Shown: piece after piece, positions 1-41,605 of the stretch
How positions within the stretch are numbered: the first letter of the stretch is position 1
Layout: each line of letters begins with the position of its first letter
Sequence record: PQ850597.1
Source: Escherichia phage ChristineMuster_Bas80
Strand: one strand, 5' to 3'
DNA length: 47,021 nt
Program-made: the position numbers and the translations under genes
The notes under the pieces: generated by a model
Seen by the model: only the letters and a program-made list of their open reading frames with translations
The model's database searches: none
Told to the model about the DNA's origin: nothing

Positions 1-489
1 ATGTGCAGACGCGAAATGAAAATGCATGGTGCTACACAAAAAATCATACAAATGGTAGATGAAATGAAGCTAACAAAAAAACAACGCGAAGAGCTACGCA
101 TGAAGTTCGGTGGTCGCTGTGCTTATTGTGGGTGTGAGCTACCTGAGAAAGGTTGGCATGCAGACCATGTTGAACCAGTGCTACGTAAATCTGAGCAGTG
201 CATGAAAGCAGCGGCGAAAGGGATTTTCAAGCTGAAGGCAACCGGTGAGCTATATCGACCAGAAGCCGAGCGACTGGAAAACCTTTACCCTGCGTGCGCC
301 CCCTGCAATCTGATGAAAACTTCCTATTCCCTGGAAATGTTCAGGAAGCAGGTATCTCTTCAGGTTGCTCGTGGGCGCAAAAGCAGCATGAATTTCCGCA
401 CTGCAGAGCGTTTCGGTCTTATCGCCGTGGTGGAGAGACCGGTTGTTTTCTGGTTTGAGAAATACCAGGAAGAGAACGAAAAAAAATAA
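1..489 (+). CDS. HNH-family endonuclease (may continue upstream of window edge)
   Basis: Translation shows paired Cys and His residues in HNH-like spacing (CAYCGCEL...HADHVEPV...CAPCN); sits directly upstream of terminase genes. Confidence 0.65.
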   Translation: MCRREMKMHGATQKIIQMVDEMKLTKKQREELRMKFGGRCAYCGCELPEKGWHADHVEPVLRKSEQCMKAAAKGIFKLKATGELYRPEAERLENLYPACAPCNLMKTSYSLEMFRKQVSLQVARGRKSSMNFRTAERFGLIAVVERPVVFWFEKYQEENEKK

Positions 490-6326: not shown

Positions 6327-6935
6327 TTAATCATCAAGTTTCACGCCGGGAATTTTGCCTGCTGCGATGGCTTCATAAATTAGCTTAGCCTCATCCTCGC
6401 GCTTGTAATCTTGCGCTACCATTTCTAATACCGCGCAGATAGATTCAAGTACAGCCTCATGCTTCCTTTCTGCTTCTGTGCGAAATGGGATGAAAACATC
6501 CTTATTGGATGGGGTTATTGCGTAGTAAATCTCACCAGATGGTCTGATAACTATTTTTTCGCCATCAAGACCAATAACCTTGACTTTTCCCCATGACGTT
6601 CCGTTGCTGATATACTCACATTCACACCCAACTGGCGGCAGTCCTTCTCCGTTCCATGCTGAATTTTTCGATGCTGCGAGCGCTGCTTTGTATTGCCAAT
6701 AGGTTACTATCGACTCCTTATGGTCGGAAGATAATGGCGTAGCCCATTCTTCTCCATACCAGAAATGCACAAGGCTATTTCCTGTGTGATGTTTCCATGA
6801 GAACCCCTCATAGTGTGGGTCATTTGTGTCCCATGCGCACAGCGAACCGTCATTATCTTGAGTAATTGACAGCGCGTTTTGAGGCCACCCACCGCGCTTA
6901 GGTAATTCTTGAACCAGTAAATCAATAAGCTTCAT
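6327..6935 (-). CDS. Hypothetical protein (202 aa)
   Basis: ATG at 6935 (MKLIDLL...) preceded by AGGAG; overlaps stop of upstream HNH gene. Confidence 0.5.
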   Translation of the reverse strand: MKLIDLLVQELPKRGGWPQNALSITQDNDGSLCAWDTNDPHYEGFSWKHHTGNSLVHFWYGEEWATPLSSDHKESIVTYWQYKAALAASKNSAWNGEGLPPVGCECEYISNGTSWGKVKVIGLDGEKIVIRPSGEIYYAITPSNKDVFIPFRTEAERKHEAVLESICAVLEMVAQDYKREDEAKLIYEAIAAGKIPGVKLDD

Positions 6936-7407
6936 AATTAAAATCTCCTGCGTATTTAATTCTCGCCTCTTGCGACACAAGCTCTGCCAGCTCAATGTCT
7001 TCGTAGTAGCCCAGATGGATCTGTGTTTTATTTACGCATATCCTTACTCGCCATGAATTTCCGGCAGGATACCAGCTGACTCCCTTCATCCCTGTTTTGT
7101 TTCTGGATGTGATATCCTTGTTGTGCTTATTTTCAGATGAAGTGCATGGCCTTAAGTTGCATAATCTATTGTCATCTCTCACCCTGTTAATATGATCCAC
7201 CTCCTTTGGCATCTCTCCTGTCACGTATAGAAGAGCAAGCCTGTGCGCAAGATAAAGCTTTCCATCAATGCAGATCTGTATGTACCCTTTCCCATTTACC
7301 GACCCAGCCTTTCGACCGCTAAACCCATGTCTTCTTGATTTAATCCACGTGAATTCACCAGATTCAGGGTTATAACTAAGAACACGGAAAAGATCACATT
7401 GTTTCAT
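6922..7407 (-). CDS. HNH endonuclease with AP2-like DNA-binding region
   Basis: Motifs GYIQICIDGKLYLAHRLALLYVTGEMPKEVDHINRVRDDNRLCNLR typical of HNH_3-type homing endonucleases; GGGAGA RBS. Confidence 0.7.
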   Translation of the reverse strand: MKQCDLFRVLSYNPESGEFTWIKSRRHGFSGRKAGSVNGKGYIQICIDGKLYLAHRLALLYVTGEMPKEVDHINRVRDDNRLCNLRPCTSSENKHNKDITSRNKTGMKGVSWYPAGNSWRVRICVNKTQIHLGYYEDIELAELVSQEARIKYAGDFNYEAY

Positions 7408-27195: not shown

Positions 27196-27222
27196 AGCCC
27201 CGCTATTGCGGGGTTAGCTTTT
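27196..27222. terminator. Hairpin terminator candidate overlapping the stop of the minus-strand gene
   Basis: gccccgc-tatt-gcggggt hairpin then T-rich tract. Confidence 0.5.
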
Positions 27223-28078
27223 CTATCTCCAGCATCAACCTTGGTGTTTTTATTACCCATTCCGTACACCCATCAAACCCAGAAAATCCAGCTCTCTGGA
27301 ATTCATTGTGAAATCTTGATTCTATGCTTGCGGCAGTCATGCCATTTGTTTTTATTATCTTGATGATATCGAATTGAAATGGCGTATCTCTGGTTAATTT
27401 CCTTATCCTCTCTGCTTTATTATGAGTTACACCAATCTTTACCGCCCCAGCTGATACGGAAACAAGAAAGTAAACATATGCCGTTTTGTTTGTCCTCTTA
27501 AACCCATAATCAGCGCATTCAGGGCATCCCTTTCCAGACATATGATCGGAAGTGAATTGCAAAAATTCCCCATGCTTACGGCATATTATTTTAACCTTAA
27601 CCCTAGAATTAACGAATGAATCAACATCATATTGATAAGCGAACGAGTGAACTATATTTGATTTTCTCACAAAAATATCAAACGTTAACTTCCTGTTCTT
27701 GCTGCATGATGGACATCCTGCTCCTGCCATATGATGACTTCTTCTTTGAGTGAATACGCCGTGCTCTCTGCATATTATCTTGATATTTTCTGAAGATACC
27801 TCACCTTCAACCAGGTAATAATCATATTTACATTCATGAATTTCATTAAACCTCTCAATCAGGGAGTGCAGTTTGATTTTTCTTGATTCACGCCCACACA
27901 ACCTGCACCCTCCAACCAAATGAGCGTCAGGCCTTTGTCTAAACTCCCCATGCTCCCTGCAAATTATTGTTAATTTTGTTTTAGCGTCAAAATAAACAGA
28001 TTTTGAGTAATCATATTTGTCGCCGTGCGTGAGCCTTGCACGGCGAATGAATTCTTCAGTAGTTAATCGCTTGCGCAT
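27203..28078 (-). CDS. Zn-ribbon-repeat protein with C-terminal T5orf172/GIY-YIG-like domain (homing-endonuclease-like)
   Basis: Three tandem repeats of about 57 aa each with YDYS and C..HG.F...H..G.GCP.C; C-terminal YVYFLVSVSAGAVKIGVTHNKAERIRKL block. Confidence 0.5.
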   Translation of the reverse strand: MRKRLTTEEFIRRARLTHGDKYDYSKSVYFDAKTKLTIICREHGEFRQRPDAHLVGGCRLCGRESRKIKLHSLIERFNEIHECKYDYYLVEGEVSSENIKIICREHGVFTQRRSHHMAGAGCPSCSKNRKLTFDIFVRKSNIVHSFAYQYDVDSFVNSRVKVKIICRKHGEFLQFTSDHMSGKGCPECADYGFKRTNKTAYVYFLVSVSAGAVKIGVTHNKAERIRKLTRDTPFQFDIIKIIKTNGMTAASIESRFHNEFQRAGFSGFDGCTEWVIKTPRLMLEIEKLTPQ

Positions 28079-37456: not shown

Positions 37457-37891
37457 GCCAAAATAGGTCAACACTGCAATCTTTATCTGGTCGAGTCCAC
37501 ACGCCACCGCAGAGAATGCACCAGCGCTGGCGCTATCGTTGAGAAACGGTATCTGTCCTGGTTGCCATTTGCTAAGCGTTGAATCATGGCGCTTCAACTC
37601 TATCGTCGCTTTATGCCACTTCACACCAGGCGTCAGGATTATCACATCAGACACCCCTGACCTGACACCTTTCCTTGCGCGCGATGACAGATGCTGCACT
37701 GAGTTGCTTTTAGTCTCCTGAGATGGATGGAACCACAGCACATCAGGAAACCGATAATCCATCCACCACTTAAACGCTATCAAGTCTGAATCCTCATGCG
37801 GACACTCGCCACGGTAACCTTCATCAAAAATTAATACCTTGTCACTCAGCTCATGCTGCTTGAATCGCTTTTTCACTATTCTCTCCTGCAA
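37436..37891 (-). CDS. VRR-NUC domain nuclease (putative)
   Basis: GVSDVIILTPGVKWHKATIELKR matches the D...E.K core pattern of VRR-NUC proteins. Confidence 0.5.
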   Translation of the reverse strand: MQERIVKKRFKQHELSDKVLIFDEGYRGECPHEDSDLIAFKWWMDYRFPDVLWFHPSQETKSNSVQHLSSRARKGVRSGVSDVIILTPGVKWHKATIELKRHDSTLSKWQPGQIPFLNDSASAGAFSAVACGLDQIKIAVLTYFGLPFDVD

Positions 37892-39797
37892 AATCTTTTC
37901 TATGGATTATGTCGCGACCTTTATCATTAATGCGATGAGTGATGCGTTTTGGCGCTTTAATCAATCCAGCATACATCATGAACTGCTTAGCATTCTGGCA
38001 TTTCAGGATTTTCCCCGCCATTGACTTATCATCAAGGTGAGGAAAAATAGCCTTTGCCTTGAACATGTTTTTCATGTGAGTCGCACCGCCATATGGGTAG
38101 AAAACTTCGTTAGCCCAGCCTTCTTTGCCATCACAACGATTAATCCAGTAGCGATACAAAATACCTTCTCCATCCTTTGTTAGCTGGACTTTGAAATCAA
38201 TAACATCAGCCCACTCATTATCGGTATACGCACGCTCATTCAGCGCCGCATTCGGGTCGCGCAACACGTGATCGCAATGTCGGCAATAACGCGCCGTCGG
38301 GTCATTTTTAGTCCCGCAGCCATCATCAAAAATACGGATTCCGTGCTTATCAAAACCGCAACGGATGTAACTGAAAAACTCTTCGCAACGACCATCTGGA
38401 GATAGTGGGTCTTTTCCTATGCAACGGCGCGCATATGGGCTGTTCATTGTTCCGCACTTAGGACACGGAACCTGTTCACCACTGCGTTTTGAACGTTGTG
38501 CTTCAGCCTCTTCCAGAATCGGGTCTTCATACAGTTGACCAAGCTCAAACATCGTTCCTGAGAAATCAAGGACCAGATGGTCTTCTTTATGATACCCGGC
38601 GTCAATTTGCTCTTTCTTCAGCAGGCGCATACCGCGACCAAGCAACTGAACAAGAAGGGTGAGTGACATTATTTTTCGTAATATCACGCTTGTATCCCAA
38701 AGCGGGATATTGACGCCAGTCGTCAAACAACCAATCTGGAAAACATATTTAATCTTGCCAGTGTATGCGTCTTTTAACGCCTTGCGTCTGGCTTTCTGTC
38801 CCATATCCTCGGTGACGATAGCGTAACTTCCTTCGGGTAAATATTTAGATGCCTCCTGACAGTGTTTTTTACCTGCGCATGTAATTAGTACGCCATTTCT
38901 GTTTTTTGTCAGCTCCATAACCTTGAGCATGATTTTCTGCGTGAGTGTCCCTTGCTCAAGTATTTCTTTCTGCATCTGCTTGAGTTGCTCGGCAGTAAAG
39001 TCTTGTGTACCGTCAACATCTGAACCATGGAAGTTATGCAGGTCATATTTCAAATCATCAACATCATGAAGACCAAAGATTGTTGGCACAACAAAACCGC
39101 GATCTACCATGTACTTTGTATCAATGTTTATTATTTCATTTTTCCAGTACGCACCTTTCATTGATTCAGTACCACGGAATGGGCTGCCGGTGAATCCAAT
39201 TGTTATCATTTCATGCCCATATCTTGCCTTGCAGCGCCTATTAAGTTCAGTAAGTATTGCGCCATATTGTGTTGTTGGATTATCACTAATAATATCCTGC
39301 CATGGAGCTTGATGGGACTCATCGATCAGGCAAAATCTTGGGGTAAAATCACTCAATCCACCTTTCTTAACGTCACCGTTTGATTCATCTTTTTTATCAA
39401 AAAGTGCGTTCGCGATTGTTCCTTCAGTACCGCATATAATAGGGTATGCTGTACTTTTCCTGCCAAGAGATGCGCTATAAAGAGAATTTTTTACACCGCA
39501 CTCCCACATCATCTCAGCATTCTGCTCAGCTATCTCCCCCTGTCTTGAAATTACAAGCCCATCCCATCCCATATCCTGAAATCTACTGCAAAGCATTGAA
39601 ATCATCACTGTCTTTCCTGATGAAACCGACGCTGTAACATAGCTTGGCTCAGGTTTCTTTCCAAAATTACGAATAACCTCAGCGCACTTTGCGTAAACAA
39701 GCCATTGGTAATCATATGGCTCTATGGAGCCTAGTTTTATTGATTTCTTTAAGTTACCTATATCAATTTCTGAAATCATCTTGTCTATTTTGTGCAT
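37851..39797 (-). CDS. Superfamily-2 DNA helicase with C-terminal zinc-ribbon
   Basis: Walker A SVSSGKT, DExH box CLIDESHQ, C-terminal CPKCG...CRHC. Confidence 0.8.
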   Translation of the reverse strand: MHKIDKMISEIDIGNLKKSIKLGSIEPYDYQWLVYAKCAEVIRNFGKKPEPSYVTASVSSGKTVMISMLCSRFQDMGWDGLVISRQGEIAEQNAEMMWECGVKNSLYSASLGRKSTAYPIICGTEGTIANALFDKKDESNGDVKKGGLSDFTPRFCLIDESHQAPWQDIISDNPTTQYGAILTELNRRCKARYGHEMITIGFTGSPFRGTESMKGAYWKNEIINIDTKYMVDRGFVVPTIFGLHDVDDLKYDLHNFHGSDVDGTQDFTAEQLKQMQKEILEQGTLTQKIMLKVMELTKNRNGVLITCAGKKHCQEASKYLPEGSYAIVTEDMGQKARRKALKDAYTGKIKYVFQIGCLTTGVNIPLWDTSVILRKIMSLTLLVQLLGRGMRLLKKEQIDAGYHKEDHLVLDFSGTMFELGQLYEDPILEEAEAQRSKRSGEQVPCPKCGTMNSPYARRCIGKDPLSPDGRCEEFFSYIRCGFDKHGIRIFDDGCGTKNDPTARYCRHCDHVLRDPNAALNERAYTDNEWADVIDFKVQLTKDGEGILYRYWINRCDGKEGWANEVFYPYGGATHMKNMFKAKAIFPHLDDKSMAGKILKCQNAKQFMMYAGLIKAPKRITHRINDKGRDIIHRKDFAGENSEKAIQAA

Positions 39798-39805
39798 TTC
39801 ATCAC

Positions 39806-40507
39806 CTATGGCATGTCAGGCCAATAAGAGTTGCTTTTAGATCTGTTTTCACTTGGTGCAAGTAATTGCAAGTTATGCCAGCAGTGAAGGCCGCAAACCA
39901 ATTTACTATTTATTGGCACTATGTGATCAACTTGCATACCAAGAACGCCAGCCATCTCATAAACCTTTTCAATTAAAACCCTTTCATGTTCAAACCATGA
40001 TGGTATCGCCCGTCTTTTAAGATACTTATATTTACGCTGATGATATCTAACAACACCCTTGTTTTTCTGTCTCCACTGTTTTGACTTCTCGTTGTGCTTT
40101 TCCTTGTTTTCATTGTAATACTTCTTTGATTTTGCGTTTATCTTGTTCTTATTTGCTGCGTAATTACCTTTCTTGAACTCTGATTGGCACTTCTTACATT
40201 CAGGCCTAAGACCATCAAGTGATGATTTGTTTTTATTGAAGTTTTCTTCATTTGCATCAAGAACTGAGTTGCATTTAGAGCATACTTTCCTTCCATCAAC
40301 AAGATATCTCAGCCTTTTACCTTTGTTTCCATCGCATGATTTACAATGAGATTTTAAACCAAGCCTCATCTTCTTATCTGAGTAGAAGTAATCACTTGTT
40401 GCAGGAAGCATTAAATTGCATCTTGAGCATTTCTTTTTTGTCCCTGTGCTTGCGCAACCTGCACTTTCCTGAGCAACATTTTGCTTTTGCAGTTCCGATA
40501 AACTCAT
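39806..40507 (-). CDS. HNH homing-endonuclease-like protein with CxxC repeats
   Basis: C-terminal VDHIVPINSK...CWHNLQLL...ENRSKSN core, preceded by CSRC...CKSC and CSKC...CKKC pairs; start at 40507 has a GAGG RBS; track start 40579 also possible. Confidence 0.55.
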   Translation of the reverse strand: MSLSELQKQNVAQESAGCASTGTKKKCSRCNLMLPATSDYFYSDKKMRLGLKSHCKSCDGNKGKRLRYLVDGRKVCSKCNSVLDANEENFNKNKSSLDGLRPECKKCQSEFKKGNYAANKNKINAKSKKYYNENKEKHNEKSKQWRQKNKGVVRYHQRKYKYLKRRAIPSWFEHERVLIEKVYEMAGVLGMQVDHIVPINSKLVCGLHCWHNLQLLAPSENRSKSNSYWPDMP

Positions 40508-40544
40508 TTCCGCAAACCTCGCACTTCTTAACGGTGATAGCCAT
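40392..40544 (-). CDS. Small Zn-ribbon ORF in alternate frame overlapping the HNH gene 5' region
   Basis: ATG at 40544 with AGAGGA RBS; product has CEVCG...CCSGKC; frames meet at an A6 run. Confidence 0.35.
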   Translation of the reverse strand: MAITVKKCEVCGNEFIGTAKAKCCSGKCRLRKHRDKKEMLKMQFNASCNK

Positions 40545-40651
40545 TTCTTGTCCTCTATTGTAACGATTAATTGTTTCATTTCAAGTAACGATTGATTGTT
40601 TCATGTGAGTAAATTACAATGATTCTACATCATCGTCAACAGGAAGATTTT

Positions 40652-41605
40652 ATGAGATACGACTGGAAAGATATTGAGCCAAAAATGCTTGGCAATTGGC
40701 AAGCTGCCATCATGTCTATCGTCAATGTGGATAGCAGAGTTTTCAATGGCAAGCACCAGCCATGCCCGTCATGCTCAGGAAAAGACAGGTATCGCTTTGA
40801 TGACAACTTCGAAACAAAAGGCGATGGCGGCGCAATCTGCAATCAGTGCGGTTCCGGCAGCGGCATGAATTGGCTGATGAAACTCTCCGGAATGAGCTTT
40901 CCTGAAGCGCTGGAGGCACTTGGTGGATTCCTGAATATGCACCCGCGTGAAAAGCTGGAGGCAATCAGGAAGGAGTTACCGAAGATAAATTACAACGATG
41001 ACTTCGTCACAGAGCAGGAAGTCGCCGCAATCATGGCTAAAACGACGCGTGTCGCGATGAATGAGTGGACTTTGATAAATGGTATTGGTTGCGACGTTAA
41101 CGTCACCAGAGGCAAATCTGGAGAACTTATTGCGGTTGAGATGATGCGAGCTGACACAATGAAACTGTGCAACGTGGCATTCATTGGCATGGATGGTGAT
41201 TCAATCAGAACGTTTTTCCGCGCAGGATACAACAAGGACTCAGCCATCAACGGCAAACTCACGCGCGGCGCGATAAGCCCAATCGGAGAAGACAACGGGA
41301 AGTTCATTTACCTGGTATCTGATTATGCCGATGCGTGGAAGTGCCATTACTTCACTGGCGCGCATGTCTGGTGCTGCTGGTCGCCGGAAAACATGTGGGA
41401 AGTGGTGCGCTCTGTTAGCAATGAGATGAAGTCACGGTTACGCTGCATAGTTAATTATAAATTTGACGAACTTTGCGCTGCGGAAAACGCAGGGATTCCG
41501 GTGATGCTTCCTGATGATGCCGACACTATCAGGATGGCAAAGAGAATCAGGAGAAAGATTTATGACGCTGGCGAGTTGATAGAAAAAATGTCAGTCAACA
41601 GATAA
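40652..41605 (+). CDS. DNA primase-like protein with N-terminal zinc-binding domain
   Basis: CPSCSGKDRYRFDD...GGAICNQCGSG pattern typical of phage/plasmid primase zinc-binding domains; AGGAAG RBS. Confidence 0.55.
   Translation: MRYDWKDIEPKMLGNWQAAIMSIVNVDSRVFNGKHQPCPSCSGKDRYRFDDNFETKGDGGAICNQCGSGSGMNWLMKLSGMSFPEALEALGGFLNMHPREKLEAIRKELPKINYNDDFVTEQEVAAIMAKTTRVAMNEWTLINGIGCDVNVTRGKSGELIAVEMMRADTMKLCNVAFIGMDGDSIRTFFRAGYNKDSAINGKLTRGAISPIGEDNGKFIYLVSDYADAWKCHYFTGAHVWCCWSPENMWEVVRSVSNEMKSRLRCIVNYKFDELCAAENAGIPVMLPDDADTIRMAKRIRRKIYDAGELIEKMSVNR

Follow-up and report, generated by a model that had tools for sequence, protein, structure and literature searches.

In the 47,021-nucleotide stretch of DNA from Escherichia phage ChristineMuster_Bas80 (PQ850597.1) that was analysed here and is called the window in the following, a Jersey-like siphovirus encodes a small zinc-ribbon (Zn-ribbon) protein and an HNH endonuclease in two frames of the minus strand, A and B, in a cassette between a divergently transcribed primase gene (Zn_Ribbon_Prim) and a helicase gene (ResIII/Helicase_C). 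Based on sequence comparisons, and with moderate confidence, we read this arrangement as a conserved overlapping two-gene cassette, in which the nuclease gene would start at the ATG at 40507 and the Zn-ribbon gene lies over its leader. Gene 1 (frame A, 40544-40392), with its strong Shine–Dalgarno (SD) sequence and ATG, would give a Zn-ribbon protein of about 50 amino acids, and gene 2 (frame A+1) would be translated from the GAGGT at 40520-40516 and the ATG at 40507, both inside gene 1, to give the HNH nuclease. A nuclease start inside gene 1 would explain why the nuclease has an unconstrained leader of about 22 residues. The features that underlie this reading are the following:

40392..40544, minus strand: Zn-ribbon open reading frame (ORF) in frame A, 50 amino acids, MAITVKKCEVCGNEFIGTAKAKCCSGKCRLRKHRDKKEMLKMQFNASCNK followed by the stop, with CxxC-x12-CCxxxC and then a basic tail.
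40551..40556, minus strand: SD sequence AGAGGA of the Zn-ribbon ORF, duplex energy -5.8 kcal/mol.
40516..40520, minus strand: internal SD-like GAGGT, 8 nucleotides (nt) 5' of the frame-B ATG at 40507, duplex energy -6.6 kcal/mol.
40427..40445, minus strand: frame junction AGG GAC AAA AAA GAA A/TGC, at which the selected frame changes from A to A+1.
39806..40507, minus strand: nuclease ORF in frame B from the internal ATG, 233 amino acids plus stop, with leader, CxxC...CxxC modules and C-terminal HNH core.
39830..39931, minus strand: catalytic HNH core VDHIVPINSKLVCGLHCWHNLQLLAPSENRSKSN, with the invariant C-terminus WPDMP after it, assigned by invariant columns and PHROG matches.

Frame B is offset by +1 from frame A and is open from 40579 to 39806 (257 amino acids), with the ATG at 40507 inside. 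The A6 run at 40439-40434 is spanned by gggacaaaaaagaaatgc at 40444-40427, and removal of one A from this run results in a single ORF of 245 amino acids, the hypothetical fused protein. A preliminary description of this DNA had reported the two frames, the +1 direction, and the Zn-ribbon with its ribosome-binding site AGAGGA, all of which was confirmed when the ORFs were re-read on the minus strand; the site that it gave for a check of the A run, 40455-40470, was wrong. The check itself had a clear outcome: A6 and the two-frame layout are base-for-base the same in Escherichia phage SandraMuster_Bas78 (Bas78), whose region is 99.7% identical to that of the window, in the records AB4P2 and ZCKP8, and in three IMG/VR contigs, all of which were read directly, and some of these relatives are about 10% diverged from the window. 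As the A6 run is identical across independent assemblies, an artefact of reads or homopolymers is ruled out. Other Klebsiella phage records show about 90% identity to the region. The AB4P2 record (L002, OR544125.1) is labelled Acinetobacter phage vB_AbaM_AB4P2, a myovirus of A. baumannii; its region is 99.1% identical to Bas78 and the window, and because this is an identity to an E. coli Jersey-like siphovirus, both the host and the morphotype on the label look doubtful.

Selection acts differently on the two sides of the junction. Upstream of it, 1, 3, and 11 variable sites fall on codon positions 1, 2, and 3 of frame A, and the synonymous fraction of the codon differences is 0.78 in frame A versus 0.00 in frame B, whereas downstream, over 200 codons, this fraction is 0.60 in frame B versus 0.04 in frame A. 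Both parts are under purifying selection, and the selected frame changes cleanly from A to B at the junction, which means that both halves are expressed and constrained. The conserved part of the Zn-ribbon ORF comprises residues 1 to about 34–37 only, and the tail of frame A past the junction is an unconstrained shadow of the nuclease N-terminus. Conversely, the frame-B leader of about 22 residues merely mirrors the Zn-ribbon as its +1 shadow and has no constraint of its own, and the conserved nuclease body that follows it begins with K-x-CxxC.

Starting from protein homologs, and extended by a ribbon-based scan of IMG/VR and a tblastn search of cultured phages, the comparison gave 35 distinct junction sequences with the +1 layout, which represent about ten clades; the layout is present in 72 cultured phage records with Salmonella, Escherichia, Klebsiella, Vibrio, Listonella, and Aeromonas as hosts, plus metagenomes (L and P numbers are our own handles for individual sequences or lineages). 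In all 35, the distance from the last ribbon Cys codon to the first body Cys codon is 3n+1 nt, and the nuclease body is intact (166–313 amino acids) in 33 of them. The same ribbon and junction precede at least five types of nuclease body—CxxC+HNH, NUMOD4/HNH_3+CxxC+HNH, HNH_3+AP2-like, a YFTGKPCKYGH type, and a Vibrio 'DNA-binding domain protein' type—and the split is retained between bodies that are only 35–47% identical. In these homologs, the annotated N-terminal 'leaders' align with the frame-B leader of the window, and their DNA encodes, in every case, a conserved ribbon that has its own SD and ATG and is read in frame -1 with respect to the nuclease body. From these comparisons, we regard the split as an ancient, selection-maintained state.

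A fused form was sought with the fused protein as query, with a 72-amino-acid fused profile, and with an exhaustive hmmsearch, which gave 1310 ribbon hits. The query matched thousands of HNH relatives, and the ribbon was covered by none of the best 120; among 5.8 billion proteins, the profile search found none in which the ribbon shares a frame with this HNH body. The preliminary description had asked for a contiguous N-terminal Zn-ribbon in homologs, and this has a divided answer: none is fused with this HNH body, but in distant relatives the ribbon is fused in frame with other nucleases, namely with GIY-YIG (L114), with a T5orf172-like domain (P0206), and, as tandem ribbons, with HNH (P0200). 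Within the clade, the A6 run is confirmed, the ribbon is a conserved unit, and there is no fused form, which is essentially the outcome that the preliminary description had named as speaking against its reading of a homing endonuclease in decay or using recoding. The ribbon also occurs alone. For the ribbon ORFs L141–L144, which were new from the exhaustive search, predicted +1 nucleases downstream were not found, and these are independent small genes; such stand-alone ribbon genes make a free ribbon peptide a plausible product.

The ribbon gene has been largely overlooked in annotations: in 13 of 14 deposited records examined it is unannotated, and LPST10 alone lists a hypothetical protein. 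Pfam gave no match above threshold to the ribbon. SD and ATG of frame A are present in every case, with SD duplex energies of -4.9 to -10.6 kcal/mol across all clades, and the consensus of the ribbon among relatives is M(A)IT.KKCE.CG..F.GTA.A..CS.KCR...(H/Y)R. In L086 (ENA k141_13386), the start codon of the Zn-ribbon ORF and the stop codon of the preceding primase-like gene overlap in an ATGA (about 1158–1161), an arrangement that we interpret as translational coupling of frame A to this gene; primase, cassette, and helicase are all on the same strand there.

The assignment of the nuclease as HNH endonuclease in the preliminary description is supported by PHROG matches to endonuclease VII (phrog_1035, 6e-18) and to HNH families (phrog_1271, 1.6e-13; phrog_99, 3.5e-10). 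V-D-H-I-V-P and the residues N236, N245, and N250 are invariant among 13 homologs. Pfam HNH models gave no match above threshold to this nuclease body, and a sequence search of the PDB found no relative with a solved structure. Judged by the PHROG matches and invariant positions, the protein is a predicted member of the HNH (His-Me finger) endonuclease family.

The internal start of frame B is further evidence for two separate genes. In most clades, the internal SD of frame B is no weaker than the SD of frame A (-6.6 versus -5.8 kcal/mol in the window), and in phage Skate the GAGGT carries a ribosome-binding-site annotation. An open frame-B ATG with SD is present in seven of 11 clades, versus 0.95 expected under synonymous recoding of frame A, and the number of clades with a frame-B start and SD rises to nine of 11 when GTG and TTG are counted as starts. 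In threshold-free rank tests, the combined p-value was 7e-3 when only ATG was counted and 1e-4 when any start was allowed, and in the controls, which are ribbons without a +1 body, frame-B SD and ATG are found in 0 of 11 (Fisher's exact test, p=0.002); the clades are kin to one another, and these p-values are therefore optimistic. L085, L086, L088, and L090 were reached via gene-called proteins, by which an ascertainment bias is possible; in the clades from the ribbon scan only, which are unbiased for frame-B starts, the count is four of seven, versus 0 of 11 controls. The codons that supply the SD differ between clades, as E-V gives GAGGT, K-E gives AAGGAG, and G-R-E gives GGGAGAG, and the internal SD and ATG are not a by-product of the ribbon protein sequence. 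Where the ancestral ATG (TAT-GG of F-Y-G, at +43/+46) has been lost, a replacement is present, at +37 in Jersey-like phages and at +106 in L014, in the latter case directly 5' of the first Cys. In most clades, although not in all, each of the two frames thus has its own SD and start and is under purifying selection across its own section.

Annotated nuclease starts were examined in this light. They lie in frame B within the ribbon, and three records (Bas78, AB4P2, and ZCKP8) use the upstream ATG and thereby include the following stretch:

40508..40579, minus strand: first 24 codons of the 257-amino-acid ORF, MKQLIVTIEDKKW..., annotated as coding in Bas78, AB4P2, and ZCKP8.

These codons are probably not translated, because the ATG at 40579 lies within a promoter-like site (see below) and has no SD (duplex energy +1.2), and because the ORF from this ATG is closed by stops in relatives (L007, L130, and L134-136). 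The ATG homologous to that at 40507 is the start used by P0003 and by the annotations of Vi II-E1 and Skate. None of the deposited annotations examined contains a slippage join in the nuclease.

Besides the kinship of the clades and the possible ascertainment bias, several observations weigh against a cassette of two separately started genes. In L013 and L117, a GTG preceded by a weak SD is the only candidate start, L115 offers no more than a weak one, and L111 has no start at all between the frame-A ATG and the body. The end of the ribbon abuts the start of the nuclease body, with a basic linker of 4–6 residues between them, as in the in-frame fusions L114 and P0206, and the alignment of PHROG 1271 to the hypothetical fused protein is colinear from residue 3 to residue 241; a Zn-ribbon–nuclease fusion product would be structurally sensible. 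Phage gene overlaps of more than 100 nt are unusual. The openness of frame B upstream of the junction points towards internal initiation, with a joint probability of 0.003 under synonymous reshuffling, but it does not differ significantly from the control ribbons, seven of 11 of which are open, too.

Several of these points would be explained by the alternative that survives best, a programmed +1 ribosomal frameshift, which we consider possible but unlikely. Ribosomes that start at the Zn-ribbon ATG would reach the junction, and a minority would slip within about five codons after the conserved Arg codon (AGG GAC AAA AAA G) to make a Zn-ribbon–HNH fusion of 245 amino acids, whereas the majority would stop and release the free Zn-ribbon. 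The slip could take the form of tRNA-Lys re-pairing, with AAA_A or AAA_G as the site, or could happen at an AGR codon that is decoded slowly, and it could work beside internal initiation. The constant +1 relation with its 3n+1-nt spacing is in line with such a device, and so are the in-frame fusions of the same ribbon with GIY-YIG/T5orf172 and HNH nucleases, the colinearity of PHROG 1271 with the fused protein, and the lineages in which a good frame-B start is missing. The junction reads NNY-AGR in 34 of 35 cases (CGA once), followed by Lys- and purine-rich codons with AAA_R in most lineages, L086, L088, and L014 have rare Arg codons in tandem, and there are precedents in the frameshifting at AGG/AGA in E. 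coli and at CUU_AGG_C in Ty1 (PMC5009743). However, there is no common slippery motif, L014, L086, and L113 lack an AAA_R context, and K-rich tails after the ribbon are also found in the stand-alone and in-frame homologs. A specific signal of hungry AGR codons was not supported, as AGR is the general Arg usage of this gene (13 of 16 Arg codons, versus 29% in the other genes of the window). The only tRNA gene of the window is a tRNA-Met (CAT; 22061-22137, minus strand), and since no tRNA-Arg is encoded, AGR decoding relies on the host. The junction has no stimulatory RNA structure (fold z=0.19), SD-like strings occur there in only part of the lineages and not at any constant spacing, and the sequence downstream of the junction varies with the body type. 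The selected internal SD and ATG and the open upstream frame B would be superfluous if the nuclease were made by frameshifting. The recoding that the preliminary description offered as an explanation is therefore not favoured, in view of the variable A run, the lack of a shared slippery motif or structure, and the selected internal start.

If frameshifting did take place, one may speculate, by analogy and with slightly more doubt still, that a low-efficiency +1 shift produces the active, targeted fusion, with the free ribbon acting as a competing repressor or immunity factor, in an IS1-like logic with interchangeable bodies. The internal frame-B start would in this case yield a third, untargeted nuclease isoform.

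Transcriptional slippage, in which RNA polymerase slips at A6, where the template reads T6, and leaves out one A in some transcripts, thereby restoring one long ORF, is very unlikely. It would fit that A6 is common to window-type and L007-type genes despite different flanking codons, that several lineages have A6–A7, and that the variant P0001 has A8. In P0001 (95 member sequences from Logan), the frame-B protein ...STGKKKKCSRC implies GGGAAAAAAAAG, in which A8 arose by a C-to-A substitution with an unchanged frame relation, as read from the protein. However, the junction run is only A3–A5 in L013, L117, L088, L130, L014, L086, L113, and L008, all of which keep the split, and the ordinary genes of the window contain 21 other runs of A6 or longer. 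With lengths from A8 to A3 between lineages, the A run was rejected as a shared mechanism, and A6 is shorter than the runs that usually give efficient transcriptional slippage.

The last alternative, a recent frameshift in a decaying homing endonuclease or a homopolymer miscall in a once contiguous gene, has next to no probability left, as the same junction is present in independent assemblies, about ten clades, and 72 cultured phage records, with both halves under purifying selection and 33 of 35 bodies intact, even though homing endonuclease genes are often disrupted by frameshifts (PMC10448857) and a relative with a truncated body of 74 codons does exist. For the locus in the window, error and decay are refuted by the assemblies, the deep conservation, and the selection, and decay, which had been suggested for it, is also contradicted by the retention of the split across the divergent bodies. 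The relative is TanjaMuster_Bas81 (L130, PQ850630.1, 1301-1907), in which a Zn-ribbon ORF of 45 amino acids is intact and the +1 body stops after 74 codons; about 500 nt are unannotated there, and the truncated body is the only one. This copy, unlike the one in the window, is a real decaying cassette.

The overlapping two-gene cassette also behaves as a mobile unit. The helicase is found in 191 phage records and the ribbon in only 72, and in Seszw_1, C1, and BUCT541 the primase directly adjoins the helicase; a ribbon ORF is absent there, and the sequence between the two genes is a different one. These empty sites indicate that ribbon, junction, nuclease, and the promoter region with its 18-bp repeats have been gained or lost as one unit, as is expected for a free-standing homing endonuclease, and the slot between primase and helicase is occupied by at least five different nuclease bodies. 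We therefore class the element, on its distribution, as a putative free-standing homing endonuclease cassette, and the selfish-element context that was assumed before holds in this respect. An origin of the ribbon as a split-off N-terminus of the helicase was rejected, since helicases at empty sites begin at the same MHKID... and lack the ribbon. Most likely, insertion of 1 nt into the linker broke up an ancestral in-frame Zn-ribbon–nuclease fusion, and the split form was afterwards fixed and spread with several nuclease bodies.

Regarding the function of the overlap, the ribosome traffic of gene 1 over the internal start may hold nuclease synthesis low. The free Zn-ribbon peptide could be a DNA-binding regulator, a partner, or an immunity factor, in analogy to the stand-alone CapR Zn-finger (PMC10448857), and it might act on the nuclease target site or on the 18-bp repeats that lie in the divergent promoters upstream of the cassette. 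The features of this region are the following:

40557..40584, minus strand: sigma-70-like promoter TTGAAA-16-TACAAT before the cassette, with 10 of 12 consensus matches, predicted from the consensus.
40562..40579, no strand assigned: repeat copy 2, AACGATTAATTGTTTCAT (plus-strand letters), inside the minus-strand promoter-like site (-35, spacer, and -10).
40587..40604, no strand assigned: repeat copy 1, AACGATTGATTGTTTCAT (plus-strand letters), overlapping the -35 TTGATT of a plus-strand promoter-like site that faces the primase.

The two copies of the direct repeat are identical in 17 of 18 bases and are the only ones in the window, and at least two matches were obtained in 0 of 100 shuffles. 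The primase-facing sigma-70-like site on the plus strand is TTGATT-17-TACAAT. A sequence resembling CGTTACAAT is found again 5' of the Zn-ribbon ATG in distant relatives. The preliminary description had taken the repeat for a duplicated start region, each copy with an ATG AAA CAA start. The repeat is indeed present at these positions, but the triplets are no starts: the ATG of the first copy reads AAG in ZCKP8 and is thus not a conserved start codon, the ORF from the ATG of the second copy has no SD and is closed by stops in relatives, and the copies coincide with the promoter-like sites. The repeat is probably an operator or a duplicated promoter.

On the other side of this region, the primase ORF is listed at 40619-41605 (plus strand), and its ATG at 40619 (MILHHRQQEDFMRYDW...) overlaps the -10 TACAAT of the plus-strand promoter-like site. 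In Vi II-E1 and ZCKP8, the annotated primase has 954 nt and begins at a downstream ATG (MRYDW...) with an AGGAAG SD, and this shorter start looks more likely. The helicase (37851-39797, minus strand) contains, besides ResIII and Helicase_C, extra C-terminal Zn-ribbon/DZR-like motifs at residues of about 445–512. A second copy of the CSxxCR ribbon was not found in the whole window. The window had been described as containing at least four nuclease-type genes, and the other three are real by their domain matches: an HNH gene (1-489, plus strand), an HNH_3+AP2 gene (6922-7407, minus strand), and a T5orf172/MUG113 gene with DUF723/DUF4379 Zn fingers (27203-28078, minus strand). All three are ordinary ORFs in one frame each.

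The consequences concern annotation and biology. Nuclease starts have been set without comparative evidence, and in Bas78, AB4P2, and ZCKP8 they lie within a promoter-like site. The split state is fixed, selected, and reused with at least five nuclease bodies in phages of Enterobacteria, Vibrio, and Aeromonas, and for this reason the free DNA-binding module and the nuclease probably act as a regulated pair, which bears on the question of how selfish nucleases limit their own expression and toxicity.

A literature search did not find any account of phage HNH or homing endonuclease genes in which a frameshift or an overlapping ORF is conserved, and the reviews and surveys that were searched treat homing endonuclease frameshifts as decay and contain no conserved case (PMC10448857 among them). 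T5orf172 and IPA-HNH homing endonuclease genes carry their Zn modules in the nuclease frame, and frameshifts in them have been read as decay (PMC10448857). Our cassette resembles these free-standing phage genes in its presence or absence near replication genes, in its CxxC 'beads on a string', and in the swapping of bodies by recombination, and the stand-alone CapR, a Zn module that is a separate small DNA-binding protein, is comparable to the free ribbon (PMC10448857). It differs from them in the frame of its N-terminal ribbon, which is -1 against the body throughout, and in that this state is conserved and selected. By the sequence comparisons made here, the cassette is best read as a modular free-standing homing endonuclease whose DNA-binding module would have been split off into an overlapping gene.

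With the +1 shifts of prfB (RF2) and Ty1, the cassette shares the +1 relation and, as in the CUU_AGG_C of Ty1, the rare Arg codons AGG/AGA at the junction (PMC5009743). Unlike in these systems, the P-site codon (CAC, TGC, TTC, TAT, and others) cannot re-pair in +1, the site has neither a stop codon nor an SD at a fixed 3-nt distance, and the AGR at the junction is due to the general codon bias of the gene. Another comparison can be made with Rz/Rz1 of phage lambda, an out-of-frame overlapping pair in which each protein has its own start. The cassette likewise uses one DNA for two frames with their own starts, but unlike in overprinted pairs, a single frame is constrained at any position, and the junk leader in one frame together with the junk tail in the other is in line with a split fusion and not with de novo overprinting.

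The closest functional analogue is, in our view, InsA/InsAB' of IS1. Together with OrfA/OrfAB of the IS3 family, it shares with the cassette the mobility, a short upstream ORF for a small DNA-binding protein of the Zn-finger type, an out-of-frame catalytic ORF, and an A-rich junction, and in both the short product can be expected to dominate. IS1 and IS3 rely on a -1 shift, for which there is a defined slippery sequence (A6C, or A6G together with a structure), and their downstream ORF lacks its own start. The cassette, in contrast, has a +1 relation without a shared slippery motif or structure, and its downstream frame is equipped with a selected SD and ATG.

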